From: a virus
Length of the DNA stretch: 64,000 nucleotides
IMG/VR virus record: IMGVR_UViG_3300045988_135203
Coordinates: 49,699 to 113,698 of that record
Direction: 5' to 3' (one strand)
Shown here piece by piece: positions 6,362-64,000 of the stretch. The notes beneath the pieces are model-generated. The model was not told where the DNA came from and did not search any database. It saw only the letters and a program-made list of their open reading frames with translations. Position numbers and translations under genes: made by a program. Each line of letters starts with the position of its first letter. Position 1 is the first letter of the stretch.

Positions 6362-7837
6362 ATGGCAGAAATAAGTTTTGATGAATATTTTAACTTTCCA
6401 GATACTTATAAACAAAATTTATTAAATGCTACAACAACTGTTAAAGAAAAAATTTCATCTTTGAATAGAGTTAATCCTGATGAATATGCAAAGTTAGAAA
6501 ATTATTTAAACAGTATTTTTTATCCATCAGAAGATAATGCTGATGGAGTAGCTTATAGTAAACAATTTATGAATAGATTGCGGTCTTTGTATGAAGCAAA
6601 AACTGATAAAGTTATTACGAGCGATATTGGCGATTTAACATATAAAGCTTTAAATAAAAAGCCTACTTTAGATAGAAGTGTTAATGTACACAGAGCTTCT
6701 TTAAGAACTATGAAAAGCCAATATGATGCAATAGTTAATGTAATTAATAATTTAGCTGATACAGAAAATGCTAAAGAAATTCAGGCGGTTTTAGATGAAG
6801 TTAATAAACAATATGGTAACGTTTTAGCTACTATAGAAGATGTATTAAAAACTTATGAAGATGAAGGAGAAACTACTCAAATTGGTAAAGGTATAGTTAA
6901 AAAGCATGGTGGAAATTTTGAAAAAATAAATGAAGCACAGAATGGATTAAGAGCTTTATACAATACTTTTAATAATGCTGGATTAATTATACTTCCTATA
7001 GACTATGGAGATTTTCTTGAATATGGATTAGGTTTATTATCAAATGAAATGGCTGAAATAACAGATAATTTTGAGGATGAAGTTATTGAATATATGCAAG
7101 ATAAAATTGTATTAGGTGGTCAAAATGTTGCACGTGGTGGTGGTTTAGTAGATGTAGATATGTCTATTAAATCTGATTTCAAGAAAAAGACAAAAAAGAT
7201 TGAAAATGGTTCAACCAAAATCTTCTGGCAATATCAAAATATTACTCTTAGTTATGATCCTTCTAATATAACAGTTTTAAATACTGGTGTTAAAAAGCAA
7301 GGTAAAGTCGATGTAATGCTAACATTACCAGATGCAATGGGCGGTGAAAAATTTAGAATTTCCGCAAAGAACTGGAAAACAATAGATGAATTAAGAAATT
7401 TAGGTTCTACTTCTCTTATGGATGCAATACATAGAAATACTGGAGATTTAGAATTAGATTATTATATGTTATCTATGCAAAACCCAAAAGAAGTATATAT
7501 GCAGGCTGCAGATGAGCTAGCTAAGATTTGTATTTTTGCGGATATTGCTATGGGTTTGTCCCAGGAAGAAGGTTATGCGGATACATTGGTTATAAATGAT
7601 AGAACTGCAAAACATCTATATGTTCGTAATATTCCTCAAATGATATTAGATGCGGTTAATAAGAATTTATCTAGTTTAGCATTAAAAGGGTATGATGTAT
7701 CTTCTATTAGTGAAGAAGCCGCGAAGGCTAGACAAATAGCCATGAAATTAAAAGAAGGTCGTCTTGAGGAATATTTTAGAATTTTTAGAAGTCAATTAAG
7801 AAGTATTGAGGTTTCTGTTCAGTTTTTAGCCCCATAA
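6362..7837 (+). CDS. hypothetical tail-associated protein (491 aa)
   Basis: RBS AAAGGAGAA. Lies between the putative tube gene and the chaperone-like gene. Too large for a canonical gpG chaperone and has no tube or sheath signature that I can verify. Confidence 0.5.
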   Translation: MAEISFDEYFNFPDTYKQNLLNATTTVKEKISSLNRVNPDEYAKLENYLNSIFYPSEDNADGVAYSKQFMNRLRSLYEAKTDKVITSDIGDLTYKALNKKPTLDRSVNVHRASLRTMKSQYDAIVNVINNLADTENAKEIQAVLDEVNKQYGNVLATIEDVLKTYEDEGETTQIGKGIVKKHGGNFEKINEAQNGLRALYNTFNNAGLIILPIDYGDFLEYGLGLLSNEMAEITDNFEDEVIEYMQDKIVLGGQNVARGGGLVDVDMSIKSDFKKKTKKIENGSTKIFWQYQNITLSYDPSNITVLNTGVKKQGKVDVMLTLPDAMGGEKFRISAKNWKTIDELRNLGSTSLMDAIHRNTGDLELDYYMLSMQNPKEVYMQAADELAKICIFADIAMGLSQEEGYADTLVINDRTAKHLYVRNIPQMILDAVNKNLSSLALKGYDVSSISEEAAKARQIAMKLKEGRLEEYFRIFRSQLRSIEVSVQFLAP

Positions 7838-38771: not shown

Positions 38772-38816
38772 CGGAAGAGAAATGTTTGTTTCATTTCTCT
38801 TCCGTTTTTTTACTTT
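38772..38816 (+). terminator. rho-independent terminator (ACGGAAGAGAAATG / CATTTCTCTTCCGT followed by a T-tract)
   Basis: 14-bp perfect stem with a 7-nt loop, followed by TTTTTT. Confidence 0.8.
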
Positions 38817-38844
38817 ATATAAAAAGATAGAAAGGAGATACCGC

Positions 38845-44800: not shown

Positions 44801-46725
44801 TCATTACTTTTGATATTCAAGGTGGTAATTTAGGTTATAATAGCTATAAATTATTAAAGCTTTATATTGATGCTGCAAGTCATACAGATGCAAATGCAAC
44901 TCGTAATATTAATCTTACTGATGTTCAGTGGAGTCCATATGTTAAAGTTACTGATTCAGATTTAGGATTTAGTAATACTGCTAAATATTTTAAAGATGAT
45001 GGACACTTTGGATTAGTAGCATTTACTAGAGATAATTATAATGAAGTAGGTTTCTCTGGTTGGTCTCAATTAATCAAAAATGAAATGATTTATGAATATA
45101 CACCAACTGCAATAAATGGTATTACATTAGATGAAGCTAATGGTGTAACAAATATTACAGATACAGCTCTTCTTGAAGAACTTGTAAGTAATGTTCATTA
45201 CCTTAGTACTGCAGAATCTAATAATGAAGTTCCAAATATTACAGGTTATGTATATATTAATAATGAAACTGCTATTGATGAAGGAACAATTCAAACTAAG
45301 TTGGCAAGTAAATTCCCTGGTTTAACTTTCTTCTTTAATAAAGTTGATAAAGGATATGCAGCTAGATTTGTTATTCTTGAAAATGGTGTAGAAACATTAA
45401 TTGGAACCGATAAGATTAGTAAACAAAACTTTAATACTTTCTTTACTAATCCATTAGAAAGAACAGAAACTGCATTTAGCCCAAGTAGAATTAATGCTTT
45501 AAGACCTACTAAAGACTTCTTAGGTTGGGGTACAACTAATAATAGAGGCGGTTTAATTGAAACATATGATGAAGTTGCTACTGGTCTTGGACTATCCGCA
45601 ACTCATTTATGGAAAGACCAAAAATTAGAAAAAGATAAATATGATTATACTTTTTATGCAGTGTTTGAAGATCATTATTGGAATATTTCTTTCTATATAG
45701 TTGAAGCTGATGGAAGTTATACTCCAATCACAAAAGATACCTACTCTTCTTCTGGCGGAGAAGATGTAGTAACTAAAGTTCCAGTCTCTTATAAAGCAGT
45801 TCATGGTAGTATTTTACATGACCCTGGGGTTAATGTAGCCCGCAGTGATGAAGTTAATTTGGCTAAAGATCAACGTTATAGATTCATTGGCTTTACAAGA
45901 AAAGTAAATGGTAAAAATGTTTATTCTGCGGAAAATGCAGTCAATGTAGTAGATTTTTCTAAAATAGCTGCAACTGCAAATACAAGTTTTTATGCAGCAT
46001 TTGTAGAAGAAAGTGTTTATGATAAAACTACTGATGATAAATATTTTGATTACGTAAATATCCAAATGGATGGAGCTTCTGGATATAGGCTTGAACTTAA
46101 ATCTAAATATTGTAACTCTGGATTCGGAGGTAAGATTACCTTACCAGTAGAATATAATGAAAAACCTATTCTTCAGATTAGTGGATTTGGTGGCGAAACT
46201 AACCATACAAATATTACTCACGTATTCTTTAAAGGAACACCAAAAGTTAAATCTATTGCGGCAGATTGTTTCCGAAATTGCGATAGATTAAAATATTTCC
46301 AATATCCAGATACTATAACTGAATTAGAGGCATATTGTTTCCAACTTACAAAATCACTTGAAGCTTTTAGACTTAATAAAGGTTTAAAAATTATTGGTGA
46401 TAGTGCTTTAAACCAAGCATTTGAGGAATCATCAGATCCTTACGAACTATATATTCCAGGTACAGTTAGTCAACTTGACCAATATGGTGTTTCTTACTTA
46501 TTTAGTAATATTACATCTATTACTATTGGTGGTCCTGGAGATGGAACTAATCTGAGAACTCTTAGTCCTAACGCTTTATCTCAGAATCATAAAGCAAGTA
46601 GTATGACTGTTTACTCTAACGGTCCACTTGAATCTTCATTTAAGACATTATTGGAAGCAACTTCTACAGATTCTCAAGTAGGATTTATTAAACCTAATGT
46701 AACTATTAACTATGTAAATGCATGA
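38845..46725 (+). CDS. giant receptor-binding/tail protein (2627 aa) containing a LamG-like (concanavalin-like) domain and BspA-type leucine-rich repeats
   Basis: The track start 38782 would place the first 21 codons inside the terminator hairpin. ATG 38845 has AAAGGAGA 6 nt upstream. LamG signature ...GGCDVDLYKFRVYNRALGLNEVLKNI at ~40440-41190. BspA/LRR_5-like repeats (VKSIAADCFRNCDRLKYFQYPDTITELEAYCFQLTKSLEAFRLNKGLKIIGDSALNQAF) at ~46220-46425. Gly-rich linker SGSGGGGGTGGDSG near the N-terminus. Confidence 0.7.
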   Translation: MNPSFRPIRGTEEKLLSTPYQEGYIYFAVDTGNIYMDANGQAKIPLGGRGAAVLYSKVKGAQNAGDDNYTLYQDGLEDPNQTVREGDLIINTADGAFYKVLELNPAEEAIICARIAVSGSGGGGGTGGDSGPTIRRGRLTVTNDGESDILNGSPCTFTITTTSATETIEGQAKPIDDELQLAIKFMLTESNQVFYTETLTVEHGQTFTYNVGEHLRSSSDITIDFKLSGSLTNSFYNSGQLQRRIKTHDLNIEWVASQFSNMKYFTDSINTSIRFSTGARRILDVYFDDALIYTKIYSAEASDANASPIITKNSTIYNLNGTSTGNTLSAAYSHGRHTISARLSLAKADGSRGSSTNLIKKEVALYLDEGYPLIWFGDMESIYYEYDTPLVPIRVYDPHAGAAGAEVYLYIDGSDALDGSCYTISNDASNYLYWTLTKLAAGQTTVYQVRVGEDKYETWETVPEFEVLEDPRKMDIARSSLIVDFDSRGRSNSEVAQRRSQLKIGDSYATLSGFNWYNNGWVMDSNNVTCLRISNGASVSLPIGSMSFAGNIASHTIEMRLKIRNVQSYDKLITNYTRYQVISDPDKLSSPDIDRSWTDDTVFAEFLAQKATGLASYDAYLTKRLPELREQNPTIPTYEDLEFSRLHRTYDLASAMVKYIENESSPQTEAAICLGPQDGYFSNGTNAVTVDYVEDKVINLTIVYDNGTGTSNLGNNKLMKFYLNGMLTSVARSQSAGSWSIGANNLIISSGGCDVDLYKFRVYNRALGLNEVLKNIAYDDTDTTAWDLAELYVANESIGEDYQFSYNKMIEYNKNHPDGYIMPYIIFTTDDTDNSTGGKLPWRKDTPVTAGIEFVNTGLERAYDNGDLAAEAKAAGVEIEDYYLHHCPSWIAEGAKLSVQGTSSEFYPRRNYKGKTKVDVPHVDENGGTSTDEFGDVRTDTVYTMKCHKGPFKKKYDAGEAKPQKFFYYDNNTVGTNKFTLKVDYMESSGTYNMGLANLVNTAYSHHPLRDYNSAEAFVTGTAGKETLISAYPANGLCWYRNHKGNWKCASTGDASKDEQLITTPYGDVLGDISCKNAADFAKGPWQLAKEQGQTKVLGGTKKTLPDSLDDIDIITNNINQNSENGTYDDLKGYINKWYSYVPGTLSPITVGNLSDYRTSVQGFPTLAFWQTKTGKENKQEPLFIGRYNMLLDKGSAEAYGFKLGGSYKQAFIEGNPSVADVAECWEFENNSRGYCSFRDPWSRKELSFKAPVGESNEFTAKGAPIIADYFEYRYNANDDYIDMLYSMNASFENTNTIKKLQKQFGADQITDIASGRKKLLDLYSNWEKAVAWVWSTATDAVIDGKTIPTLGSYNKIELAEYIFAPNKFYIEDEQGGYKFATEYKTGISYYLINNDKQYYGVTVTNEANKVYVANKYYTLENDSYVLAEGAYDSSEVYYELVQDTSKIDEFWKLPAPVTYGTTTYEYDTQEYRLAKFKNEIEDHFNLEYLVTYFVITEVLECYDSRGKNAMFASWGPQKAKGDYIWYPIFYDMDTQLGINNTGIPSFEYNIDATEDGTFSTNDSVLWNNLYALFKNLITDKYEQLTGVPSDYFGGKLENPPFVNVETIQSWYTCDPKYIKSYSVKGIRPLLALNLDEQYKYISITNGKVGYQYQNGEITQDTSNTYFYALQGDRKLSNNQFLTNRLNYIDSWLAVGNYKRGGANRIRSRVSANNAQNTSDKWIEGTSTNGASGLIINTPYYKEDGKTKTHLFDGEYWITMTPVRNMYVTVGTDAANFPSLKYSGTPVRFETSDLEKGVRESGNYREQLYYIYGLDQMKSLGDLSRLYFQEFELSGKASKMVDLLLGYDGTDEEGSQYKNSGVNDWTIPAAAGTITGGMPLLREVNLSNITFKNQTPTFDFSSCEKLENFRDIGSNITQVTFADGVALNTLYLSDSTVNLKLVEARLLTDLVTDEKAPITRKKDNTLTAKPGLFIDGLTNNKQQTKLITFDIQGGNLGYNSYKLLKLYIDAASHTDANATRNINLTDVQWSPYVKVTDSDLGFSNTAKYFKDDGHFGLVAFTRDNYNEVGFSGWSQLIKNEMIYEYTPTAINGITLDEANGVTNITDTALLEELVSNVHYLSTAESNNEVPNITGYVYINNETAIDEGTIQTKLASKFPGLTFFFNKVDKGYAARFVILENGVETLIGTDKISKQNFNTFFTNPLERTETAFSPSRINALRPTKDFLGWGTTNNRGGLIETYDEVATGLGLSATHLWKDQKLEKDKYDYTFYAVFEDHYWNISFYIVEADGSYTPITKDTYSSSGGEDVVTKVPVSYKAVHGSILHDPGVNVARSDEVNLAKDQRYRFIGFTRKVNGKNVYSAENAVNVVDFSKIAATANTSFYAAFVEESVYDKTTDDKYFDYVNIQMDGASGYRLELKSKYCNSGFGGKITLPVEYNEKPILQISGFGGETNHTNITHVFFKGTPKVKSIAADCFRNCDRLKYFQYPDTITELEAYCFQLTKSLEAFRLNKGLKIIGDSALNQAFEESSDPYELYIPGTVSQLDQYGVSYLFSNITSITIGGPGDGTNLRTLSPNALSQNHKASSMTVYSNGPLESSFKTLLEATSTDSQVGFIKPNVTINYVNA

Positions 46726-49857: not shown

Positions 49858-49896
49858 AGAGAGGGTAACCTGCGGGTTGCCCTCTCTTTTTTTTTG
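49858..49896 (+). terminator. rho-independent terminator (AGAGAGGGTAACC / GGTTGCCCTCTCT followed by T9)
   Basis: 13-bp stem with one G-U pair, 4-nt loop, followed by nine T residues. Confidence 0.85.
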
Positions 49897-49985
49897 GACA
49901 AAAATAATTAAAATAAAATTAGATATTTTTATAAATTCATAGAGATATAAAAAACTTAAATGAAATGAGAAAAAGGAGGTTAAAC

Positions 49986-52900
49986 ATGGCAGACAATACA
50001 ATAGCTAATGCTATTAAATTTTTAAAAGGCGAAGAAAAAAGTTTGCCCGCAACCAAAACTGAAGGTCAAGTATATTTTGCCTATAAGAATGTCGGCACCG
50101 CAGAGAAACCTTCATATACAGGTGCTATTTATATAGATACTCCTATTGGAGGAACTCAGAATAGAATAAAAATGACCGCAAATGCGGATATAGCAGAATA
50201 TGCTAAAAAAGCTAATACAGATTCTCAAGGTAATCTTATTACAGGATATTTAAGAAATGCTTCTTTGACTGGAAATGCTGATAGTCAAACTTTTACATTT
50301 ACTGCACCTAGTGGTGCAAAATTTAATTTAAAATTAAACGGAGTAAATGATTCACAAGCTGGATTAGTTACTTCTGGTGATCAAATATTTCCTGGATATA
50401 AAACATTAAAATTAAGAGCTAAACCTAGTTCTATAGTTGGCTCAAATGCTGAAAATTCAGATGGATGGTATAAAGTTGCTACAAGTACAATGAGGGATTA
50501 TGATAATACTAATATTTTATACTATGTTAAAAATGGATATAGTTCAGAAGCAGTCGGTATTTTAGATTTTGAAATGAGAAGTAATGATACTAGTATTCAA
50601 TGTTGGGCTTGTAAATGGCTTGTAAGAGGTGCTGGATTTACATCAGGTATGTTTCGTGTTGTTATTGATGGAATGACATGGACCTTATATGCTTATCAGC
50701 CAGTAAAAAGATGGGGTCGTATTTCAATAACTGAAATTTCCAATACAAATATGAGTGGTAATAATCCCAATTATAAAATTACTTATTATAATTCAACCAC
50801 TAAAGAAACTACTGAGCCTGATAAAACGATTAGTTCATCAGATGGCGGACAAGTATATTTAGCAAGCAAAACCACAAGCGATGGAAATGGTCAAAATATT
50901 GCTAATACTTATATTAAATCTTTATCATATTCTAATGATGGAAAGCAATTAATAGCAACGAGAGGCTCAGGGGATACCTCTTTAAAACTTTCATTACCAG
51001 TAGCTAGTTTAACTAAATCTGGTATTGTCACCACTGATGCTCAAAGTTTTGGTGGAACAAAGACTTTTACTACTATTAATTCTACCAATTTAACTGTAAC
51101 TGGTTCTAGTGGTTTTAATTATAGTGGTATTGAAACTGCCACTGGTAATAAAGCAAGACCAGTTTGGTTTGCATATGATGGCATAAATGGTAAGCCTGTA
51201 GTTAATGCTAATTTTACTTATAATCCTGCTACCCAGACACTTAGTGTTGCAAATTTATCTGGAACTGCACAAAAAGCTAGTAATGATGATGGTGGACAGA
51301 ATATTAGAAGTACTTATGTAAAATATAAAACTATAAAATTCAGTGCTGCAGCTGATAAAATCTATCTTTTAGAAGGTAATGGTGCAGGTAGTTCAACTAA
51401 TACTACTATAGGTGATTCAAACATTTCTACAGCCATCATTCCTGCAGCAACAGACAAAGCCGCAGGAGTTATTACAACTGGAACACAAACCTTTAGTGGT
51501 GAGAAAAAATTCAATAATACCATATTCGTAAATGACTGTTTAGCTAGTAAGTCTATAACAGGAACAAATATTACTAAATTAGTATTACTTAGTACACCTA
51601 ATGCAAATATAGGAGATGCTTCTCATACTACTTCAGTTTATTTTAAAGCTTTATTAAAATGGATTTGTTCTAATTATCCTAATAAAATTGAGTGTACTTT
51701 TTTGGGAAAAGTAACTCCTAGCTCAATAGCAAATACATCTATTTTTATTTATAATACTAGTCAAATAGATGCTACTTCTGGTTTACCTCAATATTCATCT
51801 GGTAGTTATACTCACCTTGGTGGTAATATTTATACTTTTGGTACTTATAATTATGCTTTTTACTTTAGAGAAAGCTTAATGTCGGATGACCATTATGCGG
51901 GTTCTGCTTCTTCAGGTGGTGCAGCCACAAGTGCTAATAAATTAAATACCAATGCAGGCTCAGCAACCCTACCAGTATATTTTTCTAATGGTATACCAGT
52001 AGCTTGTAGTACAAATTTAGGAGTTAGTATAACAGGAAATGCAGCTTCTGCTACTAAGTTAACTTCAAGTGCAGGTTCTACTACTCAGCCTATATATTTT
52101 AAAGATGGGAAACCTGTTGCTACTACCTATTCTTTAAATGCCACTATAAAAGCAGGAGTATCTAATAGGATAGCTTTTTATTCTGGTAATAATGAAATTT
52201 CAAGTACTAATTATTTAAAATATTATACTGCTACAAATAGTAAAAAAGCAAATCAAACTATTTTACGTATTTGGGGTACTACTTATGGTAATGATGCAAC
52301 TACTACAATTAGCGGTAAAGCAAGTTCTTTAAATTGGAACGATGGTGGCCCGCAAATACAATTTAGTACTTCTGAAGCAGGATCTCAAGATGGAGCTTTA
52401 ATTTTTACAGACCATGATTCAGCAGGAATTGGAGCAAGTTTTCATTTTGTATCAAATCAAAGTGAATGGAGTGTTGTTTCTAAAAGATTTGTTGCAAAAA
52501 CAAGTATAATCATCGGTCAAGAAGCTCATACCTCTGACAATCAAGGTTATAATTTATATGTTAATGGAACTGAATATATTAATGGAATTTTAACAGCTGT
52601 TGGTGATTGTAAGTTTATTGCTCATGGTAATGAATTCAATTTTGTTCCAACTTTAAAAGCCTCAACTTCTGTATGGCTTAATTATAGACAGACAGGTGGA
52701 CAACCTACAGATGGTGACTTTATTATTAATGAATATATTTTTGGTAATGGTGCAAATAAAGCTTTAGCAAGCATTAAAGATGGTTTATTTTCCGGAGCTG
52801 CTACTTATGTTCGTGATTCTAATAATAAAACAAATAATATTTCAATAACTTATTCTAAAGTTGGACAAACATCAACTTCTTGGCTTGCTTCTTGGAATGG

Positions 52901-54074
52901 GTATGAATTAGGTTGTATTTCTCCTGCTAATATTACTGCGGGTAAAGCTACTAAATTAGCTACAGTACGTACTATAACTTTATCTGGAGCTGTAACTGGC
53001 TCAGTTAGTTTTGATGGTAGCGCAAATGTAACTCTTACTACAAATGTTAATCATACGCATAGTCAATATTATGATTCAAATATATCGAGAACTAAAAATA
53101 CAGTACTTGCTGCACCAAATGGAGCAGATGGTAAAGCTGTATTTAGAAGTTTAGTTGCTGCAGATATTCCTTCTTTAACCAAGAGTAAAATATCTGATTT
53201 TCCAAGCTCTATGCCTGCGAGTGACGTTTATGCATGGGCTAAAGCAAGCAGTAAACCAAGTTATAGTTGGGGTGAGATTACTGGTAAACCGAGTACATTT
53301 ACACCAAGTAGTCATACTCATAATTATTTACCTCTTTCAGGTGGAACAATGTCTGGAGATATAGGTATACCTAATACACCTTCTACTATTGATGGTTCCG
53401 TCCCATATGCAGGTTCTGTTGTAGTTACTGATAATATTACTAAATTTTCATCTTATAAAACATATTTAGGCACATATTGTGATAGTACGGGTACCTGGCG
53501 CAATATGATTTCTATAAGACATAGAAATGGTGCCAATGATGGAATTGATTATGGCATGATGATTTATACACAGCTTACTAGTAAAAGTGATCTTAACTGG
53601 AATAAACAGATAGGAAAAGACAACTGGCAGGGAAGCCGTACAATCCTCGATTCTTCAAATTTCGTTACATATGTACCAACAAAAACTGGTGGTGGAGCTT
53701 CAGGAACTTGGGGAATCAGTGTAACTGGCTCTTCTACATCTTGTACAGGTAACGCTGCTACTGCAACTAAACTTCAAACAGCATGCACTATCAATGGAAC
53801 TTCTTTTAATGGAACAAGTAATATTACAACCTCATATTGGGGAACCGCTAGAAATATTTATATTAGAGATTGTACTAATTCTAATACAGGAACTGCTGTT
53901 TCAGTAAATGGTTCTACCAATGCTTATCTTTCAATGCCATCAACAGCGAGGTTTACTGGTTCTGTTGGAATTGGAAACGGTTCTGGAGCAACTCTTAATT
54001 TCTATACTGCTGCAGACACTATTGGCGCAAAAATTGTTGCATATAACGATAGAATAGAATTCGTATTTGCTTAA
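49986..54074 (+). CDS. tail fibre / receptor-binding protein (1362 aa from ATG 49986)
   Basis: The track start 49965 has no RBS. ATG 49986 has AAAGGAGG 7 nt upstream. Contains two copies of the fibre motif common in phages of Gram-positive bacteria: AGKATKLATVRTITLSGAVTGSVSFDGSANVTL..NHTHSQY (~52940-53060) and AATATKLQTACTINGTSFNGTSNITT (~53757-53830). Also contains GTWGISVTGS, which is shared with the downstream fibres. Confidence 0.75.
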   Translation: MADNTIANAIKFLKGEEKSLPATKTEGQVYFAYKNVGTAEKPSYTGAIYIDTPIGGTQNRIKMTANADIAEYAKKANTDSQGNLITGYLRNASLTGNADSQTFTFTAPSGAKFNLKLNGVNDSQAGLVTSGDQIFPGYKTLKLRAKPSSIVGSNAENSDGWYKVATSTMRDYDNTNILYYVKNGYSSEAVGILDFEMRSNDTSIQCWACKWLVRGAGFTSGMFRVVIDGMTWTLYAYQPVKRWGRISITEISNTNMSGNNPNYKITYYNSTTKETTEPDKTISSSDGGQVYLASKTTSDGNGQNIANTYIKSLSYSNDGKQLIATRGSGDTSLKLSLPVASLTKSGIVTTDAQSFGGTKTFTTINSTNLTVTGSSGFNYSGIETATGNKARPVWFAYDGINGKPVVNANFTYNPATQTLSVANLSGTAQKASNDDGGQNIRSTYVKYKTIKFSAAADKIYLLEGNGAGSSTNTTIGDSNISTAIIPAATDKAAGVITTGTQTFSGEKKFNNTIFVNDCLASKSITGTNITKLVLLSTPNANIGDASHTTSVYFKALLKWICSNYPNKIECTFLGKVTPSSIANTSIFIYNTSQIDATSGLPQYSSGSYTHLGGNIYTFGTYNYAFYFRESLMSDDHYAGSASSGGAATSANKLNTNAGSATLPVYFSNGIPVACSTNLGVSITGNAASATKLTSSAGSTTQPIYFKDGKPVATTYSLNATIKAGVSNRIAFYSGNNEISSTNYLKYYTATNSKKANQTILRIWGTTYGNDATTTISGKASSLNWNDGGPQIQFSTSEAGSQDGALIFTDHDSAGIGASFHFVSNQSEWSVVSKRFVAKTSIIIGQEAHTSDNQGYNLYVNGTEYINGILTAVGDCKFIAHGNEFNFVPTLKASTSVWLNYRQTGGQPTDGDFIINEYIFGNGANKALASIKDGLFSGAATYVRDSNNKTNNISITYSKVGQTSTSWLASWNGYELGCISPANITAGKATKLATVRTITLSGAVTGSVSFDGSANVTLTTNVNHTHSQYYDSNISRTKNTVLAAPNGADGKAVFRSLVAADIPSLTKSKISDFPSSMPASDVYAWAKASSKPSYSWGEITGKPSTFTPSSHTHNYLPLSGGTMSGDIGIPNTPSTIDGSVPYAGSVVVTDNITKFSSYKTYLGTYCDSTGTWRNMISIRHRNGANDGIDYGMMIYTQLTSKSDLNWNKQIGKDNWQGSRTILDSSNFVTYVPTKTGGGASGTWGISVTGSSTSCTGNAATATKLQTACTINGTSFNGTSNITTSYWGTARNIYIRDCTNSNTGTAVSVNGSTNAYLSMPSTARFTGSVGIGNGSGATLNFYTAADTIGAKIVAYNDRIEFVFA

Positions 54075-54088
54075 TATAAAAATCTAAT

Positions 54089-54125
54089 AGGTTAAGGTCA
54101 AATTGACTTTAACCTATTTTTTTTA
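54089..54125 (+). terminator. rho-independent terminator (AGGTTAAGGTCA / TGACTTTAACCT followed by T9)
   Basis: 12-bp stem with one mismatch, followed by ATTTTTTTTT. Confidence 0.75.
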
Positions 54126-54155
54126 TACTATTATTTAGATATAAAGGAGTTAATT

Positions 54156-54959
54156 ATGCTAGACAATTTAAAAAATAATTTATTTTTGGAAGCCTATACT
54201 GTCGCGAATTTTGATAAACCGCACCTACTTTTTACTGATAATCAAACTTTTAGTTCTACAAATTCTTATACAAAACTTACTACTAGTGTTGGTGTACCTT
54301 ATGCTTATTACAGTGGGGGTACTACAATAAAAATAAGACAAAATTATGGTAGTTCTTTTGGATATTGCGGGTTTATGAGATTTCCTTATTCTCCCAGAAG
54401 TATTATAAATTTGGGGGCTTACAATGAAACGGGAGAAAAAGTTGTTCAAGATGTGCAAAATTATACAAATAATCAGTCTGAAGATTATTTTTTTTTAGTT
54501 GATATAATATATAATTCTGGTTCTAATGTTTATACGATAACATTAAATATTTACTCTACTTTACAAAATAAATGGGTTTATACTAATAACCTAAATATGC
54601 ATATGCCTAGTGGATATAATACAGATTCAATATCAGATTATTGTCCTGGATTTATATTTGAAACTACTGGTCCTGTATGGATATATAATTTTAGAGGATA
54701 TGGCTATAGTATTGGTAAAATTAATGCAGAAGATTTAGCTTGTGGGAAAGTATATTATATAAAAGCTACTAAAACTTTAATGGCACCTTGCTTTAATGAA
54801 TACAAAAATACTGATTATGCTAATGGTGGACATAATTATACTAATACTTGCTTTTCTAGGAAGGGCGGAGTTTGCTGTAAAGGTACTATCGAACAATCTA
54901 ACTTAAATAGAATTACTAGAACAGGTGATGTAAAATATAATGATATTATTGAATATTAA
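54156..54959 (+). CDS. hypothetical Cys-containing protein (267 aa) embedded in the fibre cluster
   Basis: RBS AAAGGAG. Has its own terminator upstream. No signal peptide. C-terminal CFSRKGGVCCKGT. Confidence 0.55.
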   Translation: MLDNLKNNLFLEAYTVANFDKPHLLFTDNQTFSSTNSYTKLTTSVGVPYAYYSGGTTIKIRQNYGSSFGYCGFMRFPYSPRSIINLGAYNETGEKVVQDVQNYTNNQSEDYFFLVDIIYNSGSNVYTITLNIYSTLQNKWVYTNNLNMHMPSGYNTDSISDYCPGFIFETTGPVWIYNFRGYGYSIGKINAEDLACGKVYYIKATKTLMAPCFNEYKNTDYANGGHNYTNTCFSRKGGVCCKGTIEQSNLNRITRTGDVKYNDIIEY

Positions 54960-54970
54960 GGAGGGATAAA

Positions 54971-56071
54971 ATGGCAATTTTAAAAGATACGACAATTAAT
55001 GGGACTTTAACCTTGACGGGAAATGGCTATATAACTCTTCCTAAAAAATCTCTTTCTTGGTTACAAGGTTTTCAGCAATCTCCAATTCAAATATCAGATG
55101 CTACTGATAATGGCGGTTATCATCCTTGGATAATCCAGAAGAATACAAGTTCTGCAAAAATGTTTACGATGGGTGTTTATCAAAGTTATTTTGTAATGGC
55201 GGGAAGTGCAACTTCAAGAACAAGTAATGGTTATGATAATGCATTATTTTTTAATGTTACTAATGGAGAATTGAAATTAAATAATTCTTATCTTTATTTA
55301 CATTCTAATAATTATAATAATTATGCTCCTACTAAATCTGGCGGTGGCGCACATGGTACTTGGGGTATTAATATTTCAGGTAACGCCGCAAGCCTATCCT
55401 CAACATTACCTATTAGTAAAGGTGGTACTGGAAGTACAAGCTTTACTTCTAATAGAATGATATATTATAATGGTTCTAGATTAGTATCAGCAAGCAATGT
55501 TAGAGTTTATAGTTCAGAAATTTTTGTTGAAGTTAATAATACTGATACAGTACGTTTTTATGTTCAAAATAATAATAATACTGTAGATTTAAGAACATCA
55601 ACTAGTGCAGGTGTTTATCATAGTAATAGTAAAGGAAGTAAATCAGCTAAATGGCTTATTTATATCAATACTTCTGGAACAGTTGTTGCTAATACATCCG
55701 ATAGAAGAAAGAAAAAATATATTGAAGATACTACAGAATATGAAACAACTTCGATATTAAAAAATATTAAAATTCGTAATTTTATATATAAAGAAGATAT
55801 AGGACATAATAATTTAGTTCAAAATGGTATTTTTGCTCAGGATTTAAGGGATATTATGAAACATTATAATATAAGTAATCGTCCTTGGTTGCAATGGCAT
55901 TATAATAATGATGATAATGTTTATTATGATATAAATGAACCAGAAACAGATAATATGACTTATGAAATTAATTATTCTAGTTTAATTCCATTACTTATAA
56001 AAGGTTGGCAAATTAATGAAAATAAAATTTCTCAATTAAAAGATAAAATTAAAGAATTGGAAGAGATGTAA
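54971..56071 (+). CDS. tail fibre protein with a C-terminal S74-type intramolecular chaperone (autoproteolytic) domain (366 aa)
   Basis: C-terminal ~140 aa (TSDRRKKKYIED...GIFAQDLRD...INYSSLIPLLIKGWQ...LKDKIKELEE) fit the Peptidase_S74 chaperone domain of endosialidase and L-shaped fibres: the Ser-Lys dyad context, the GxxAQ(D/E) motif and YxSLIPLL. The shared motif PTKSGGGAHGTWGINISGNAASLS links it to the neighbouring fibres. Confidence 0.7.
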   Translation: MAILKDTTINGTLTLTGNGYITLPKKSLSWLQGFQQSPIQISDATDNGGYHPWIIQKNTSSAKMFTMGVYQSYFVMAGSATSRTSNGYDNALFFNVTNGELKLNNSYLYLHSNNYNNYAPTKSGGGAHGTWGINISGNAASLSSTLPISKGGTGSTSFTSNRMIYYNGSRLVSASNVRVYSSEIFVEVNNTDTVRFYVQNNNNTVDLRTSTSAGVYHSNSKGSKSAKWLIYINTSGTVVANTSDRRKKKYIEDTTEYETTSILKNIKIRNFIYKEDIGHNNLVQNGIFAQDLRDIMKHYNISNRPWLQWHYNNDDNVYYDINEPETDNMTYEINYSSLIPLLIKGWQINENKISQLKDKIKELEEM

Positions 56072-56074
56072 ATT

Positions 56075-57331
56075 ATGTCTAGATTACGTTCTACTTTAAT
56101 AAATGGAGATTTAACTACTACTAATACTATTACAATTCCACAGAGAAATGTTTCATGGATAGATGGATTTAAAAATTCACCAATTAAAATAATTGATAGT
56201 ACTGATTCATCTAATTATACCCCTTGGTTAATACAATATAATATAGCAGATACTTATACTAGTTATGTTAGTTTTGGGACTTTTATAAATGATATAACTT
56301 TAGTTGGAATACATAAAACTAAATATGATGATGCTATTGAAATTGAACCAGAAAGTAATAATTCTAATATTGCAGTAGCTTCTGACCCTGATGTAACTTT
56401 TGAAGAAGATTTAGATGAAAATTGTATGGTTAGATGGTGGTTTAATGTTGATAATGGCGGATTTGGTATAAGAGGTAGTAAAAAAAGATTAAATGATAAA
56501 AATTGTTATTATATTAATTCTAATAATTATACTAATTATATGCCATCTAAAGCAGGTTCTGGAGCTTCTGGCACTTGGGGAATTAATATTTCGGGTAATG
56601 CCGCAAGTTTATCAAAAGTATTATCAATAGATAAAGGTGGAACTGGTCATAGTTCAATGCAATCTGGTTGTATACTTGTCAAAGGTAGTGGCATCGGAAC
56701 TTTTCCTTGTCTTAAAGCTAATAATTCTACCTATGGAATAGAAACTACAACTGCACAAGCTAAAATAGGAGTATGGAATAATTATAATACAGTAGAATTA
56801 GCTACAAATCAAAATGCTGGTATTTATTGTGATGCTAAAACTTTTACTGATGGAGAAACGAATCCTCCAGATTCAATATATGGAAAGGAAAGTAGATGGC
56901 TCATTTATATTAATACTTCTGGTACTGTTACAAAAAATACCTCAGATAAAAGAAGAAAATTATATATAGAAGATATGCCAGAAAACGAAACTAAAGTATT
57001 ATTAAATGTTCCAATTCGCAACTTTGTATTTAAAGAAGACATTGGACATAATGACCTTGAACAAAATGGTGTATTTGCTCAAGATTTGCGGGAGTTATTA
57101 AAAAAGAATAATATAGGTAATCGTCCTTATTTACAATGGGAATATAACGATAATGACAGAGATGATGTATATTATGATATTAATGCTCCAGAAAAAGATG
57201 ATATGACTTATTCTGTATCTTATAATCATATGATACCTGCGCTTATCAAAGGCTGGCAAATGCAGAATAAAGAAATTGAAGAATTAGAAAAGAAACTCGC
57301 AATACTTAGAATAAAGAAATTAGGTAAATAA
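56075..57331 (+). CDS. paralogous tail fibre protein with a C-terminal S74-type intramolecular chaperone domain (418 aa)
   Basis: Tandem paralogue of the previous gene with a 3-nt gap. Contains SKAGSGASGTWGINISGNAASLS and a C-terminal TSDKRRKLYIED...GVFAQDLRE...VSYNHMIPALIKGWQ. Confidence 0.7.
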   Translation: MSRLRSTLINGDLTTTNTITIPQRNVSWIDGFKNSPIKIIDSTDSSNYTPWLIQYNIADTYTSYVSFGTFINDITLVGIHKTKYDDAIEIEPESNNSNIAVASDPDVTFEEDLDENCMVRWWFNVDNGGFGIRGSKKRLNDKNCYYINSNNYTNYMPSKAGSGASGTWGINISGNAASLSKVLSIDKGGTGHSSMQSGCILVKGSGIGTFPCLKANNSTYGIETTTAQAKIGVWNNYNTVELATNQNAGIYCDAKTFTDGETNPPDSIYGKESRWLIYINTSGTVTKNTSDKRRKLYIEDMPENETKVLLNVPIRNFVFKEDIGHNDLEQNGVFAQDLRELLKKNNIGNRPYLQWEYNDNDRDDVYYDINAPEKDDMTYSVSYNHMIPALIKGWQMQNKEIEELEKKLAILRIKKLGK

Positions 57332-57333
57332 TT

Positions 57334-58428
57334 ATGGCTATTATTGGAAAATGGATGTTTTATAGATCTGGAAGTTTGGGCAGTAAAAAATTTGCTACTA
57401 ACAATGAAATGATTCAAGAAGGCGATGAATTTTTTTGGAAAATAGATTATAAGGGCAATTTTACTGGAACTGCCCATCAAGCCAATCAATTAGGAAGCTC
57501 AACTATTGGTAGCTTAACAAAACCAATATACTTAGTAAACGGAAAACCTACAGCTTGTAGTGATTTAATGCCTAAATCTGGAGGAACTTTTTCTGGTGCT
57601 GTAACATTTAATAGTACAGTTACATGCAGCTCTACTTTAAAGTGCGGAGAATACATAAAAAGTAGTAAATCAGCTTATGCTGGTATAACCAGTTACATAG
57701 ATATGGCAGCTACATCTACAGCTGCTGGAGTAAAAGGTGCAATTTGTATTAGAAATAGTAGTGGAATACATATACAAGGTAATATTGTTGTAATTGAAGG
57801 CGACACAAGTACACCTGCTGCATATGAAGCAGGATATCATATGACAGAAACTGGAAATATGTGTGTTAGAGGAAAATTTCTATGTAAAAATGTTATAGGC
57901 TCATCATATATGTACAATCATGACACAGTATCTGGTGGTGCTAATGTTTATGTTACTTCTAATGGTTGGTTAAGAAGAGCTACTTCTTCAGCAAAATATA
58001 AATTAGATATTAAAGAAATAGAAGAAGACGAAAAATATCCTTATAAAATTTTAAATTTAAAACCAAAACAATGGTTTGATAAAAATAGCATTGAAAAATA
58101 CTCTCAATGGTTAGAAGGTAAAATTAAAAAAGATGAATTAGATGATTGTTCGATAGATTCTTATTATGGCTTAATAGCCGAAGATGTAGAAAAAGTTGGT
58201 TTAAATAAATTTTGTTTTTATGGATATGATAATGCTCGTAATTTAAAAACTATAGAAGGTATTCAATATGATAGATTGCCTATTTTATTTATACCAATAT
58301 TAAATGATTGTATTGATTGTTTTAAAGCTATTTTACCAACAGTGAAAGAGAATATTAAAGATAAAGAAACGTTAGATAAAATTGCTTCGTTAGAAGATAA
58401 ATTTAATTCTATTGGACTTTCTTCTTAA
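57334..58428 (+). CDS. third fibre-like protein with a divergent C-terminal S74-like chaperone domain (364 aa)
   Basis: Starts 2 nt after the previous stop. The C-terminus (ATSSAKYKLDIKEIE...YGLIAEDVEKV...IQYDRLPILFIPILND) matches the same chaperone-domain pattern. Confidence 0.6.
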   Translation: MAIIGKWMFYRSGSLGSKKFATNNEMIQEGDEFFWKIDYKGNFTGTAHQANQLGSSTIGSLTKPIYLVNGKPTACSDLMPKSGGTFSGAVTFNSTVTCSSTLKCGEYIKSSKSAYAGITSYIDMAATSTAAGVKGAICIRNSSGIHIQGNIVVIEGDTSTPAAYEAGYHMTETGNMCVRGKFLCKNVIGSSYMYNHDTVSGGANVYVTSNGWLRRATSSAKYKLDIKEIEEDEKYPYKILNLKPKQWFDKNSIEKYSQWLEGKIKKDELDDCSIDSYYGLIAEDVEKVGLNKFCFYGYDNARNLKTIEGIQYDRLPILFIPILNDCIDCFKAILPTVKENIKDKETLDKIASLEDKFNSIGLSS

Positions 58429-58466
58429 AATATTATAATATATAAATAAAAAAGGAGATACTAAAA

Positions 58467-58745
58467 GTGAGATTACACGCGGGAGATGTAGTTAAACATT
58501 TTAAACGAGAGACCCTTTCACAAGAAGAACAGGAAAACACTAAAAAATATTTATATATAATTTATGATATAGCAGAGCATACTGAAACTGGTGAAAAATT
58601 AGTAATATATCATAGCTTATATGAGCCATTTAAATTATATGCTCGTCCAATAGATATGTTTATGAGTGAAGTGGATAAAGAAAAATATCCAAACATAAAA
58701 CAAGAATATAGATTTGAACTTTGGGAGGATAAAAAGGATGAATAG
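58467..58745 (+). CDS. DUF1653-like small protein (92 aa; GTG start)
   Basis: The pattern HFKRE...YIIYDIAEHTETGEKLVIYHSLYEP...ARPIDMF...YRFE resembles the DUF1653 family as I remember it. RBS AAAGGAG. Confidence 0.45.
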   Translation: MRLHAGDVVKHFKRETLSQEEQENTKKYLYIIYDIAEHTETGEKLVIYHSLYEPFKLYARPIDMFMSEVDKEKYPNIKQEYRFELWEDKKDE

Positions 58746-59136
58746 TTTAGATATTTTAAAACAAATTTTTGATGTATGTATTGTGCCTTTAATTGCAATT
58801 TTAACTTCTTATTTAATTAGTTATATTCAAGTCCAAAAAGAGCAATTAAAGAAAAAAACAGATAATGAGTTACTAAATAAGTATATTGACATGGCGGCTA
58901 ATACTATTGCGGATTGTGTTACTACAACTAATCAAACGTATGTAGAAGCCTTGAAAAAAGAAGGTAAATTTGATGAGGAAGCGCAAAAGGTTGCCTTTCA
59001 AAAAACTTTAAATGCGGTTTTAGCTTTACTCACTAAAGAAGCTAAAGATTATTTAACTGAAGCTTATGGAGATTTGAATTTATATTTAACTAATAAAATT
59101 GAGTCTACAGTTAATGAGAAAAAAACTTCTAAATAA
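58738..59136 (+). CDS. putative holin (Holin_LLH / superfamily-6-like; 132 aa from ATG 58738)
   Basis: Single N-terminal TM helix (IVPLIAILTSYLISYI). The hydrophilic remainder shows an A.N..ADCV...NQTYVEALKKEGKFDEEAQK...IESTVNE pattern resembling LL-H-type holins. RBS GGAGGATAAAAAGG precedes ATG 58738. The track start 58714 lacks an RBS. A terminator follows. Confidence 0.5.
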   Translation: MNSLDILKQIFDVCIVPLIAILTSYLISYIQVQKEQLKKKTDNELLNKYIDMAANTIADCVTTTNQTYVEALKKEGKFDEEAQKVAFQKTLNAVLALLTKEAKDYLTEAYGDLNLYLTNKIESTVNEKKTSK

Positions 59137-59146
59137 TATATTGCCA

Positions 59147-59186
59147 AAGGGGTAGGTTCTTAGAAAAGGAACCTACCCCTTATTTT
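59147..59186 (+). terminator. rho-independent terminator (AAGGGGTAGGTTC / GAACCTACCCCTT)
   Basis: 13-bp perfect stem, 9-nt loop, followed by ATTTTG. Confidence 0.65.
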
Positions 59187-59326
59187 GCATTATACCAAAA
59201 ATTTTTTAGAAAAATATTTTGGAGTGTAGGAGAAAACTGGGCGAAGGAAGTAAAAGATTACCAAAAAATTCGCATATACTTATGAAAGGGAGAGGAGAAA
59301 AAGTTAATAGAAAGAAGGTAAGTAAA

Positions 59327-62146: not shown

Positions 62147-62174
62147 CATGATTAATAAATATTCCTCTTTTTTC
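62128..62174. terminator. bidirectional terminator between convergent transcription units
   Basis: AAAGAGGAATATTTATTA / TAATAAATATTCCTCTTT, an 18-bp perfect inverted repeat, flanked by an A-run on one side and a T-run on the other. Lies between the plus-strand gene ending at 62146 and the minus-strand gene ending at 62177. Confidence 0.75.
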
Positions 62175-62176
62175 AT

Positions 62177-62605
62177 TTAATCGGTAATATGTTTTGCCTT
62201 TTGTACAACTAAAGCAAATAAACTATCACCATTATGATTGCCTTTTAAACCATTATAAGCATCATGGTCTTCAATACACTGTTGGTATTCTTCCAACGTT
62301 ATTTCGTGGTCTTCAGCTAATAATGCTTGGCATTCAGCTATAAATTCTTTCTTTTGCATTGAAAGAATTCCTTTTCTAAGAGCATCTAATTGCTTTTGCA
62401 ATTCTTGGTCGCCATCTCTTGATTCTTTTTCTATTACATCATATCGAGAAAACATATCTTTTTTGAGATTTTCATAAAATTTAGTACGTTCAATATTTTG
62501 TTCGTCTTCTCTCATCTTCATATATTTTTTGAAAAAGTACCCACCGCCTGCAATTATTAAGCCAAAACCAAATTCAACCCAATATTTAATTATAAAGTCT
62601 AACAT
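62177..62605 (-). CDS. hypothetical membrane-anchored protein (142 aa)
   Basis: N-terminal TM helix (VEFGFGLIIAGGGYFF) followed by a charged helical domain. RBS GGAGGAACACC upstream on the minus strand. Confidence 0.5.
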   Translation of the reverse strand: MLDFIIKYWVEFGFGLIIAGGGYFFKKYMKMREDEQNIERTKFYENLKKDMFSRYDVIEKESRDGDQELQKQLDALRKGILSMQKKEFIAECQALLAEDHEITLEEYQQCIEDHDAYNGLKGNHNGDSLFALVVQKAKHITD

Positions 62606-62666
62606 GGTGTTCCTCCTACCTTAATTCTCATATAAAATTAAAAAATAGGAGAGTCAAATTTATTTA

Positions 62667-63158
62667 TTAAGACCAATCAAACATTTCTGTTTCTTCTTCT
62701 TTTACAAAATAATGAGTTCCAATACATATTGCATCAGCTTCATCTTCTGTACATTTTAATCCATAAGTAGATTGAACATATGCTTGCGCGTTTTTCTTTT
62801 GCTCTGCTCTAACTTTACCTTTAATCTGTAAAGTAGAACGCCATTGTACAGCTAGAACTGAACTATTAGGTATTTTAATTTCTGTAAAATATTCACATAA
62901 AACTCCAATAACTTCTGCGAGTTTTTTAAATGTTAATACATTATTCCCGGCACCATTTTTTAATTGTATATCTTCAAAAATGACTTCGTCTACTTCATAT
63001 TTTTCAATTAATTCCTTAACCTTATTTTTAATATTCATTAATCTTTCACCAAAATCTTTATCAGTAAAAGTAAAATGTCCATAATCAAGAAGTTTGCCGT
63101 CTTCAAAAACGGCAAATCCTGATATTCGACTACTTTGGTCTAAAGCTAAAAGTTTCAT
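62667..63158 (-). CDS. RuvC-like Holliday junction resolvase (163 aa)
   Basis: N-terminal LALDQSSRISGFAV (catalytic Asp in the DxS context). Internal EVDEVIFEDIQ. C-terminal EDEADAICIGTHY acidic/His residues. All typical of the phage/Firmicute RuvC-family resolvase fold. Start overlaps the dUTPase stop (TAATG). Confidence 0.75.
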   Translation of the reverse strand: MKLLALDQSSRISGFAVFEDGKLLDYGHFTFTDKDFGERLMNIKNKVKELIEKYEVDEVIFEDIQLKNGAGNNVLTFKKLAEVIGVLCEYFTEIKIPNSSVLAVQWRSTLQIKGKVRAEQKKNAQAYVQSTYGLKCTEDEADAICIGTHYFVKEEETEMFDWS

Positions 63159-63727
63159 TATGTAGCAGGAATAAGAATTGGGGAAACGGCTACATCACTA
63201 GAACCAAAGCCGCCCTCTCTTAATCTATTGGTTTGAGTATCATCCGAAGTTTTATAATACTTTTTAACAATACCCTGTCCAATAATATCTCCTTTTTTAA
63301 TTTGAATAGGATAAGGACTTAAATTAATTAATTGAAAGAAAATTTCACCTTCATTAGCTTCACAGTTATAATAATCCGCATCAATAATACCAACACCATT
63401 AGCTAAAATAAGCCAATATTTAAGCGGAGTAGATGAACGAACTGAAAGCTCAAGGTATTTATCTGTTGGGAGTTTACATTTAACTCCAGTAGATACCAAA
63501 ATTGGTCTTGCTCCTGGTTTATCAGTCATTTTTTTCATTGCATTTAATGTAAGAATTGAATTTTCTGGATAACTATTTTTGCACATTTCTGTTATTGATT
63601 GATAATATGGTGGAATTACTACATCTTCTGCGGCAGCCATATCATAACCTGCGGCATTCATTGTTGCGCGTTCAGGCATCTTAATATCTTTATCTTTAAA
63701 TTTAGATACTTTTTCAAATTTAATCAT
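63158..63727 (-). CDS. dut: dUTP diphosphatase (trimeric dUTPase, 189 aa)
   Basis: The five dUTPase motifs are recognisable: AAGYDM, PILVSTGVK, RSS, GVGIIDADYY and REGGFGSSD. Confidence 0.85.
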   Translation of the reverse strand: MIKFEKVSKFKDKDIKMPERATMNAAGYDMAAAEDVVIPPYYQSITEMCKNSYPENSILTLNAMKKMTDKPGARPILVSTGVKCKLPTDKYLELSVRSSTPLKYWLILANGVGIIDADYYNCEANEGEIFFQLINLSPYPIQIKKGDIIGQGIVKKYYKTSDDTQTNRLREGGFGSSDVAVSPILIPAT

Positions 63728-63964
63728 TTATTCTACCTCGTAACTAATCAAAACTGACTGGTCAGGTTCTTTTTCATCTGTAAAAGTTTTTGTTAAAGTT
63801 ACTCTATACCATTCATCAATAACTTCACCCTTAGACTTTCTTTCTTTATGAACACAGCTATATTTTGATAAATTACCTTCCTGCTTTGCCTCTTCTAGTA
63901 GAGTATTTGCTTCACTTTCTGAGTCCAATCTATAAACTTCTGTTGTTCCAAGTAAATATTTCAT
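63728..63964 (-). CDS. small hypothetical protein (78 aa)
   Basis: RBS AAGGAGAAAATAA upstream on the minus strand. Starts right after the dUTPase gene in the same operon. No recognised domain. Confidence 0.5.
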   Translation of the reverse strand: MKYLLGTTEVYRLDSESEANTLLEEAKQEGNLSKYSCVHKERKSKGEVIDEWYRVTLTKTFTDEKEPDQSVLISYEVE

Positions 63965-64000
63965 TTATTTTCTCCTTTACTCATTAACTTTTATTTCTAC

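Follow-up and report, generated by a model that had tools for sequence, protein, structure and literature searches.

Intramolecular chaperone (IMC) domains have been described as common at the C termini of receptor-binding proteins (RBPs) in phages of Gram-positive bacteria (PMC9128512, PMC11406892). In a 64,000-nucleotide (nt) stretch of viral DNA (IMG/VR record IMGVR_UViG_3300045988_135203, positions 49,699 to 113,698; referred to here as the window), three adjacent genes, F1, F2, and F3, each end in a domain of this kind, of the S74 type. An earlier interpretation made without database searches (the sequence-only reading) had proposed as much, and it is borne out by a Pfam match for F1 and F2 and by profile-profile comparison, the Ser/Lys pair, and the fold for F3. 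The explanation that we favor, with a probability of roughly 0.85, is that F1, F2, and F3 are three separate receptor-binding fiber proteins with S74-type chaperones, encoded by a large (~180-kb) long-tailed phage, and that F3 was acquired independently, as a cassette that differs from the other two in both body and IMC subtype. The gene layout, the homology of the domains, the conservation of the catalytic residues, the similarity of the folds, and the mosaic makeup of the locus in relatives are observed; that the proteins trimerize, are cleaved, and bind receptors, and where they sit on the virion, we infer by analogy with described systems.

F1 to F3 resemble endosialidase NF (3GW6), GA-1 (3GUD), and MyRF (7DC3) in the C-terminal position of the domain, a Ser with a Lys five residues on, the GxxA(Q/E)D motif, and the matching fold, with a helix predicted at the C terminus of F1 and F3. 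They differ from these proteins in that identity is 11 to 17%, in that F3 has an extra helical insertion and lies below the Pfam cut-off, and in that their bodies are short fibers, whereas solved IMC proteins have sialidase beta-propellers or DNA-binding domains. In the L-shaped fiber pb1 of T5 and in gp37 of T-even phages and S16 (6F45), as in F1 to F3, the tip is directly followed by a self-releasing chaperone, and the F1/F2 profile aligns SDrRkK...GifAQd with S16 gp37. T5 pb1 and gp37 are single long fibers of Gram-negative phages, however, whereas the window encodes three short tandem fibers in a relative of Firmicutes phages. In the Ackermannviridae (tailspike proteins TSP1-4) and in the branched RBP1/RBP2 system of Klebsiella phage KP32, several RBP genes likewise lie side by side, with the N-terminal anchors conserved and the distal modules exchanged. 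Unlike F1 to F3, the proteins are large tailspikes that act as enzymes and have docking domains that are defined. Like F1 to F3, the Tal/RBP of Bacillus cereus-group phages (Deep-Purple, Deep-Blue, and Vp4) maps to the end of the tail module and has a variable region for receptor binding followed by an IMC (PMC9128512, PMC11406892). In the loci described there, the IMC sits on a single receptor-binding protein, whereas here it occurs on three consecutive ones and in two subtypes.

The three genes and their chaperone domains occupy the following window coordinates.

54971-56071, + strand: F1, fiber gene of 366 amino acids (aa), from the open reading frame (ORF) listing, with AGGAGG upstream
56075-57331, + strand: F2, 418 aa, paralogue of F1, from the ORF listing
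57334-58428, + strand: F3, fiber gene of 364 aa, from the ORF listing
55697-56068, + strand: IMC of F1, Ser243 codon at 55697-55699 and Lys248 codon at 55712-55714
56942-57328, + strand: IMC of F2, Ser290 codon at 56942-56944 and Lys295 codon at 56957-56959
57985-58425, + strand: IMC of F3, Ser218 codon at 57985-57987 and Lys223 codon at 58000-58002

The tight packing of the genes noted earlier, with gaps of 2 to 3 nt, is exact: the spacer is 3 nt (ATT) between F1 and F2 and 2 nt (TT) between F2 and F3. F1 has a strong ribosome-binding site, AGGAGG. Since F2 and F3 start 3 and 2 nt past the preceding stop codon, respectively, their spacing suggests that translation of each is coupled to that of the preceding gene.

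Comparison with PF13884 (Peptidase_S74, 'chaperone of endosialidase'; gathering cut-off, 22 bits) gave scores above the cut-off for residues 243 to 297 of F1 (25.6 bits) and residues 290 to 344 of F2 (24.8 bits). A custom IMC hidden Markov model (HMM) matched the F2 IMC with 242 bits. Two custom HMMs, for the two IMC types, run against all six-frame ORFs of the 64-kb window, found exactly three IMC domains and no further one beyond those of F1, F2, and F3. All of the C-terminal motifs quoted in the sequence-only reading, namely, the Ser...Lys context and GxFAQDL/GLIAEDV, were located in the three proteins. TSDRRKK starts at residue 242 of F1, TSDKRRK at residue 289 of F2, and TSSAKYK at residue 217 of F3, followed by GIFAQDL at residue 286, GVFAQDL at residue 332, and GLIAEDV at residue 279, respectively. 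The Lys lies exactly 5 residues past the Ser in each (S243/K248, S290/K295, and S218/K223), a spacing equal to that of endosialidase NF (endoNF) S911/K916 and MyRF S587/K592 (PMC8326128). Residues S243, D244, R246, K248, G286, A289, Q290, L292, and Y335 are invariant in 34 F1/F2 homologues, as are S218, Y222, K223, G279, and I281 to D284 in 34 F3 homologues.

The F1/F2 IMC family and the F3 family were aligned to each other by hhalign over 131 columns (94.5% probability; E value, 8e-8), with TSDRRKK paired with TSSAKYK, GIFAQDL with GLIAEDV, and YSSLIPLL with YDRLPILFIPIL. Within the F3 family, 9 of the 34 members match PF13884 at an E value of <= 0.01, the best at 3.4e-9. The F3 IMC belongs to a divergent subtype: between the Ser-Lys strand and GLIAEDV, it has an insertion of ~19 residues relative to PF13884 (residues 218 to 288 on profile positions 1 to 52). 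F3 is thus a divergent member of the IMC group by profile-profile, family-member, and fold evidence, not by the Pfam threshold.

The fold evidence comes from AlphaFold2 (AF2) models of monomers. The F3 model is confident in its C-terminal domain only (predicted local distance difference test [pLDDT] scores mostly 80 to 90, about residues 230 to 350), and in a Foldseek search of the PDB the top 11 matches were all IMC domains (endoNF 3GW6, MyRF 7DC3, and GA-1 3GUD). The match to 7DC3 had a probability of 0.99 and a target-normalized template modeling (TM) score of 0.56; domain-sized entries ranged from 0.46 to 0.56. The F1 model matched 3GUD (3gud_A) with a target-normalized TM score of 0.53, at rank 31 of the PDB fold search. 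Among the predicted viral structures of BFVD, F1 had 38 matches with E values of <= 1e-3, down to 3e-6, most of them to proteins named 'intramolecular chaperone auto-processing domain' and to tail fibers, among which were gp37-type and T5-like L-shaped ones. C-terminal helices were predicted at residues 335 to 365 of F1 and at residues 316 to 340 and 344 to 359 of F3 (pLDDT, about 80 to 89), with Ile and Leu spaced 3 to 4 residues apart in the helix sequences. The only fiber-shaft matches of the F1 model in the PDB were weak ones to T4 gp34 (TM score, 0.14). The trimeric, beta-helical form that the sequence-only reading gave the fibers would follow from analogy, the monomer models offering beta strands of moderate confidence only.

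Several results weigh against the explanation that we favor. The match to Peptidase_S74 anticipated from the sequence alone was obtained for F1 and F2 but not for F3, of which residues 218 to 288 scored 19.0 bits (E value, 0.0018), short of the 22-bit cut-off. No solved structure matches by sequence, a phmmer search of the PDB with F1 having returned nothing. The AF2 monomers are of low to moderate confidence, with a mean pLDDT of 65 for F1 and 55 for F3 and with the F3 body below 50 throughout, and the E values of all PDB Foldseek matches are weak (0.016 to 0.65). Finally, several PHROG matches of F3 are named 'minor head protein,' which allows a neck or head location. Profiles built from whole alignments gave marginal PDB matches only: the F1/F2 family aligned SDrRkK with S16 gp37 (6f45) at an E value of 0.079, and the bodies of some F3-family members matched T4 gp34 and Mu fiber S. 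A phmmer match of F3 to FimH in the PDB (E value, 0.027) was rejected as a spurious low-complexity match.

The sub-threshold Pfam score and the ~19-residue insertion of F3 would also suit a different explanation, in which one or more of the IMCs, especially that of F3, are degenerate and non-cleaving and have been retained as trimerization or structural modules. We regard this as unlikely: Ser218 and Lys223 are invariant in 34 diverse homologues, the F3 domain is modeled confidently with IMC structures as all of its top PDB fold matches, and nine members of its family match PF13884 at the E values given above.

If the three domains are instead active chaperones, as we favor, each fiber would be made as a precursor of which the C-terminal 124 to 147 residues are the S74-type IMC. 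If they behave like endosialidase NF, T5 pb1, the GA-1 neck appendage, and MyRF, the terminal helices would bring three IMCs together, and the assembled chaperones would template trimeric folding of the fiber tip upstream of them. The chaperone would then be freed by cutting of the Thr-Ser bond by the Ser/Lys pair (S243/K248, S290/K295, or S218/K223), leaving mature fibers of 242, 289, and 217 residues on the virion. These would attach by their N termini, which are alike in F1 and F2 but not in F3, and their variable tips would bind host surface structures. The sequence-only reading had placed the scissile bond between Ser and Asp, an assignment that family precedent speaks against. MyRF is cleaved at P586-S587, N-terminal to the catalytic Ser, and S587 is equivalent to endoNF S911 (PMC8326128). 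Because cleavage in the IMC family is N-terminal to the catalytic Ser, the cuts are expected at T242-S243 in F1, T289-S290 in F2, and T217-S218 in F3. The predicted products are residues 1 to 242 (26.2 kDa) and a chaperone of residues 243 to 366 (15.1 kDa) for F1, residues 1 to 289 (31.6 kDa) and 290 to 418 (15.4 kDa) for F2, and residues 1 to 217 (23.1 kDa) and 218 to 364 (17.1 kDa) for F3. Uncleaved, the three proteins would have masses of 41.2, 47.0, and 40.2 kDa, and the predicted cuts would expose SDRRK, SDKRR, and SSAKY, respectively, as new N termini.

Upstream of their chaperones, F1 and F2 can be divided into an N-terminal anchor, a neck, and a variable distal region, and parts of the neck recur in the large fiber encoded upstream.

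55325-55426, + strand: F1 neck, APTKSGGGAHGTWGINISGNAASLSSTLPISKGG, conserved across the family
55355-55399, + strand: 15-mer GTWGINISGNAASLS of F1, residues 129 to 143
55427-55666, + strand: variable distal region of F1, residues 153 to 232, directly upstream of the IMC
56570-56614, + strand: neck motif GTWGINISGNAASLS of F2, residues 166 to 180
49986-54074, + strand: 1362-aa large fiber with no IMC domain, a partial neck motif at 53682-53747, and two F3-type repeats at 51918-52127

By BLAST, F1 and F2 are 43% identical across their full length (E value, 9e-105). To judge from these alignments, they are true paralogues, in which the N-terminal anchor is similar, the neck is conserved, and the tips have diverged. 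Over residues 153 to 232, identity drops to 27%, in agreement with the different middle regions that had been described for the genes. The neck is also visible in the DNA as a direct repeat (D2) of 151 nt with 73% identity between F2 and F1. It had been described as common to all of the fibers, which is true in part: the exact GTWGINISGNAASLS is confined to F1 and F2, the 1362-aa fiber has the partial form GTWGISVTG at residue 1240, and F3 has neither form. Short stretches of F1 that include the neck (6 to 28% of the length) match otherwise unrelated fiber-like proteins with Gp53-like_C, Gp10_C, Phage_fiber_rpt, or Mtd_N domains, and the neck is a general fiber motif.

Residues 153 to 232 of F1, in which the AF2 monomer has beta hairpins at residues 163 to 232 with moderate confidence (pLDDT, 60 to 70), would form the receptor-binding tip. 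In F1 orthologues, this tip is usually the least conserved segment (49 to 70% identity), and the IMC is the most conserved (79 to 96%). Such variation in the tip, next to an IMC that is conserved, is what one would expect of a receptor-binding protein. Segment identities among relatives further showed that chaperone type tracks tip type, not anchor type. PHROG matches of F1 (E value, 4e-14) and F2 (E value, 1.5e-8) were limited to tail fiber and minor tail families; across F1, F2, and F3, the tail fiber families matched were 5668, 1980, 6921, and 1330, the names being annotations.

F3 stands apart from this pair. Compared with F1 and F2 by BLAST, it gave short segments only (E values, 0.36 and 0.012), with no BLAST-level similarity, and it is related to them in the IMC alone, at the profile level. 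Its body contains a fiber repeat that it has in common with the large fiber.

57460-57561, + strand: F3 fiber repeat FTGTAHQANQLGSSTIGSLTKPIYLVNGKPTACS, DNA repeat family D5

FTGTAHQANQLGSSTIGSLTKPIYLVNGKPTACS recurs as two consecutive units at residues 652 to 721 of the 1362-aa fiber (BLASTP E values, 8e-5 and 1e-4), and the repeat unit contains ...TGTAHQANQLGSSTIGSLTKPIYLVNGKPTACS, which is distinct from the F1/F2 neck motif. The F3 IMC is 50 to 54% identical to proteins on metagenomic contigs of 250 to 290 kb and 30 to 43% identical to the C termini of tail fibers of Staphylococcus, Bacillus, and Lactobacillus phages. Its PHROG matches are to tail and tail fiber families, phrog_1330 (E value, 5.7e-24) among them, to families named minor head protein, and, as the best match, to phrog_33754 (E value, 1.5e-26), which has no assigned function.

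Comparison of the same locus in 14 related contigs (L001 to L014) showed how F3 comes and goes. The three-gene arrangement is found in eight arrays, namely, the window and L001 to L007, while L008 to L010 and L014 have F1 and F2 only. In L008 and L013, from which F3 is absent, the F2-type gene ends in ...KKINGLSS, and its last ~15 to 17 nt (GGACTTTCTTCTTAA, encoding GLSS-stop), along with the intergenic stretch that follows, match the 3' end of F3 (...NSIGLSS) exactly or almost exactly.

58411-58466 in the window, 9150-9204 in L008, and 3030-3085 in L013: shared 3' end of the array

L014, which also lacks F3, ends in ...KKINGLSF, and where F3 is present F2 ends in KKLGK or ESGV. Because the 3' end of the array is the same in the F2-type gene of L008 and L013 and in F3 of the window, F3 appears to have been gained or lost as a clean cassette, with the right junction within its last five codons. 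L013, a more distant relative, also differs upstream: the gene before the array (17-784) has an S74-type domain at its end, with 33% identity to the F1 C terminus, and an unrelated 299-aa gene (967-1866) takes the place of the 267-aa gene found before F1 in the window and is followed by one F1/F2-type gene.

These data bear on the origin of the array, which had been attributed to duplication. That account stands for F1 and F2 and fails for F3. In its full form, it would have one ancestral fiber gene copied twice, with the middle regions diverging later, and the clear paralogy of F1 and F2, the IMC fold and Ser/Lys motif common to all three genes, and their tight packing on the same strand are all compatible with it. 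We nevertheless consider such a triplication improbable. With no BLAST-level similarity to F1 or F2, F3 is not a third copy of the same duplication. It also lacks the neck motif, its IMC matches those of F1 and F2 at the profile level only and has its nearest similarities on the unrelated 250- to 290-kb contigs and in the Staphylococcus and Bacillus phage fibers, and among relatives it comes and goes cleanly, as a cassette.

Other relatives have rebuilt the F1/F2 pair itself. A single fusion gene with an N-terminal part of the F1 type and a tip and chaperone of the F2 type takes the place of F1 and F2 in L011 (6001-7146) and L012 (6001-7155). For the fusion protein P0015, identity to F1 and F2, respectively, is 97 and 27% in the N-terminal part, 27 and 100% in the tip, and 58 and 98% in the IMC. 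The junction of the L011 fusion lies at nt ~396 to 407, within the neck codons. Since the longest exact match between F1 and F2 in the window is just 15 nt, a k-mer assembly artifact is unlikely for this fusion. In L014, F1 and F2 share an identical tract of 84 nt encoding PTKTGSGASGTWGINISGTSKTITDILP (5358-5441 and 6495-6578) and are strongly diverged outside it, an indication that the two paralogues have recently undergone gene conversion at the neck. The break in the L012 fusion falls just past the end of this 84-nt tract. L011 and L012 are Logan assemblies (from samples ERR12109070 and SRR28417527), and their fusions need read-level confirmation, that of L012 especially, given the 84-nt repeat, which exceeds the k of the assembler.

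On this basis, we tentatively suggest, at somewhat less than even odds, that the array is a self-shuffling host-range locus in which the neck serves as a crossover or conversion site, the 3' end is fixed, and each tip travels with its matched chaperone. The identical tract in L014 and the neck-junction fusions in L011 and L012 are the reasons for proposing the neck as the crossover site, and the fixed 3' end (GLSS-stop and intergenic sequence) would let whole fiber-plus-chaperone cassettes such as F3 insert and delete cleanly. A neck that acts as a recombination or conversion joint and an F3 that acts as an insertable cassette fit long-known modular fiber evolution and introduce no new principle. 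An invertible switch or shufflon was considered and set aside, there being no meaningful inverted repeats within 54000-59300.

The genes around the array place it at the end of a tail module.

8567-18013, + strand: likely tape measure, 3148 aa (PhageMin_Tail, PF10145, 97 bits)
38782-46725, + strand: 2647-aa tail-module protein with BspA-type leucine-rich repeats (LRR_5) at residues 2476 to 2583
49858-49887: terminator-like hairpin
54086-54118: terminator-like hairpin just upstream of the 267-aa gene
54156-54959, + strand: 267-aa gene, first gene of the inferred transcription unit
58467-58745, + strand: DUF1653 protein (63 bits), directly before the holin
58714-59136, + strand: holin (phrog_13712; E value, 7.5e-35)
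59147-59181, + strand: terminator-like hairpin with a 15-bp stem and then a T-rich tail, closing the inferred unit

The fiber genes come after the tape measure, the distal tail genes, and the large fiber and before the holin and lysis genes; other giant tail proteins besides the tape measure are encoded upstream of the array. This position bears on whether F1 to F3 could be neck or head appendages of the GA-1/phi29 type, which also use IMCs, instead of tail-tip fibers. The 'minor head protein' names among the F3 matches and the presence of 3gud, the GA-1 neck appendage IMC, among the fold matches would fit such appendages, although the IMC itself is uninformative on the attachment site. The best PHROG matches of F1 and F2 are to tail fiber families, however, the neck motif occurs in proteins with the baseplate or tail fiber domains Gp10_C and Gp53-like_C, and the gene order is that of a tail module, so that we give this alternative a slightly smaller chance than either triplication or degenerate chaperones. 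Enzymatic tailspikes (depolymerases or endosialidases) in place of simple binding fibers are very improbable, even though it was in endosialidases that the S74 domain was originally described, given mature parts of just 217 to 289 residues and the lack of any catalytic domain upstream of the IMC in Pfam and PHROG searches or of a solved enzyme in PDB sequence and fold searches.

F1 to F3 lie within a likely transcription unit that comprises the 267-aa gene, F1, F2, F3, the DUF1653 gene, and the holin gene and is bracketed by hairpins. The 267-aa gene lies directly upstream of F1 in all close relatives, with its size kept at 265 to 268 aa, and its product, which matched nothing in Pfam and PHROG profile searches, may help to dock or assemble the fibers; the 1362-aa fiber is a further docking candidate. 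A promoter-like scan gave 60 hits against 61 expected in shuffled sequence, and we make no promoter claim. The DUF1653 and holin ORFs overlap as listed; relatives call a later holin start, giving 131 to 132 aa. The large fiber varies in length among collinear relatives (L001 to L004, L008, L011, and L012; 1284, 1362, 1431, 1776, 1801, and 2138 aa) or is split into several genes (784+596+207+1292 aa), with a Laminin_G_3 domain, while the genes flanking it stay constant at 721, 196, and 265 to 268 aa. The 2647-aa protein with leucine-rich repeats may be a giant adhesin.

The window matches a metagenomic contig of 180,528 bp. A megablast search with 49965-58428 and a tblastn search with F1 against 50,697 GenBank phage records found no match, and by this search of deposited genomes the phage appears to have no cultured close relative. 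The virion protein encoded at 5292-6293 is ~40% identical to proteins of ~140-kb Enterococcus siphoviruses, and phages of Lactococcus, Bacillus, Brevibacillus, and Clostridium have more distantly matching proteins; the 3148-aa tape measure implies an unusually long tail. Given the relatives of this virion protein, the relatives of the F3 IMC, and the tape measure, this is probably a long-tailed, siphovirus-like phage of a low-GC Gram-positive host. Assignment to the crAss-like phages was dropped, the 491-aa candidate capsid protein (6362-7837) having no PDB match and the protein at 5292-6293 pointing to large Enterococcus, Lactococcus, and Bacillus siphoviruses. Toward the end of the window (~62150-64000), coding switches to the minus strand and the GC skew is reversed; this segment encodes a RuvC-like protein (62667-63158) and a dUTPase (63158-63727), after which relatives encode a radical-SAM activase and NrdD, the anaerobic ribonucleotide reductase.

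Collectively, the locus is an ordinary host-recognition module: S74 chaperones on fibers and phages with multiple RBPs are both well established, and no new mechanism is revealed. It provides exact, testable cleavage sites and fragment masses, and its relatives offer a compact natural example of fiber rebuilding in which anchor, neck, and tip plus chaperone behave as exchangeable units and each tip keeps its own chaperone type. Such an example is useful for the engineering of receptor-binding proteins. For the phages themselves, the locus marks the likely host-range determinants of an uncultured ~180-kb clade that is seen in many metagenomes.

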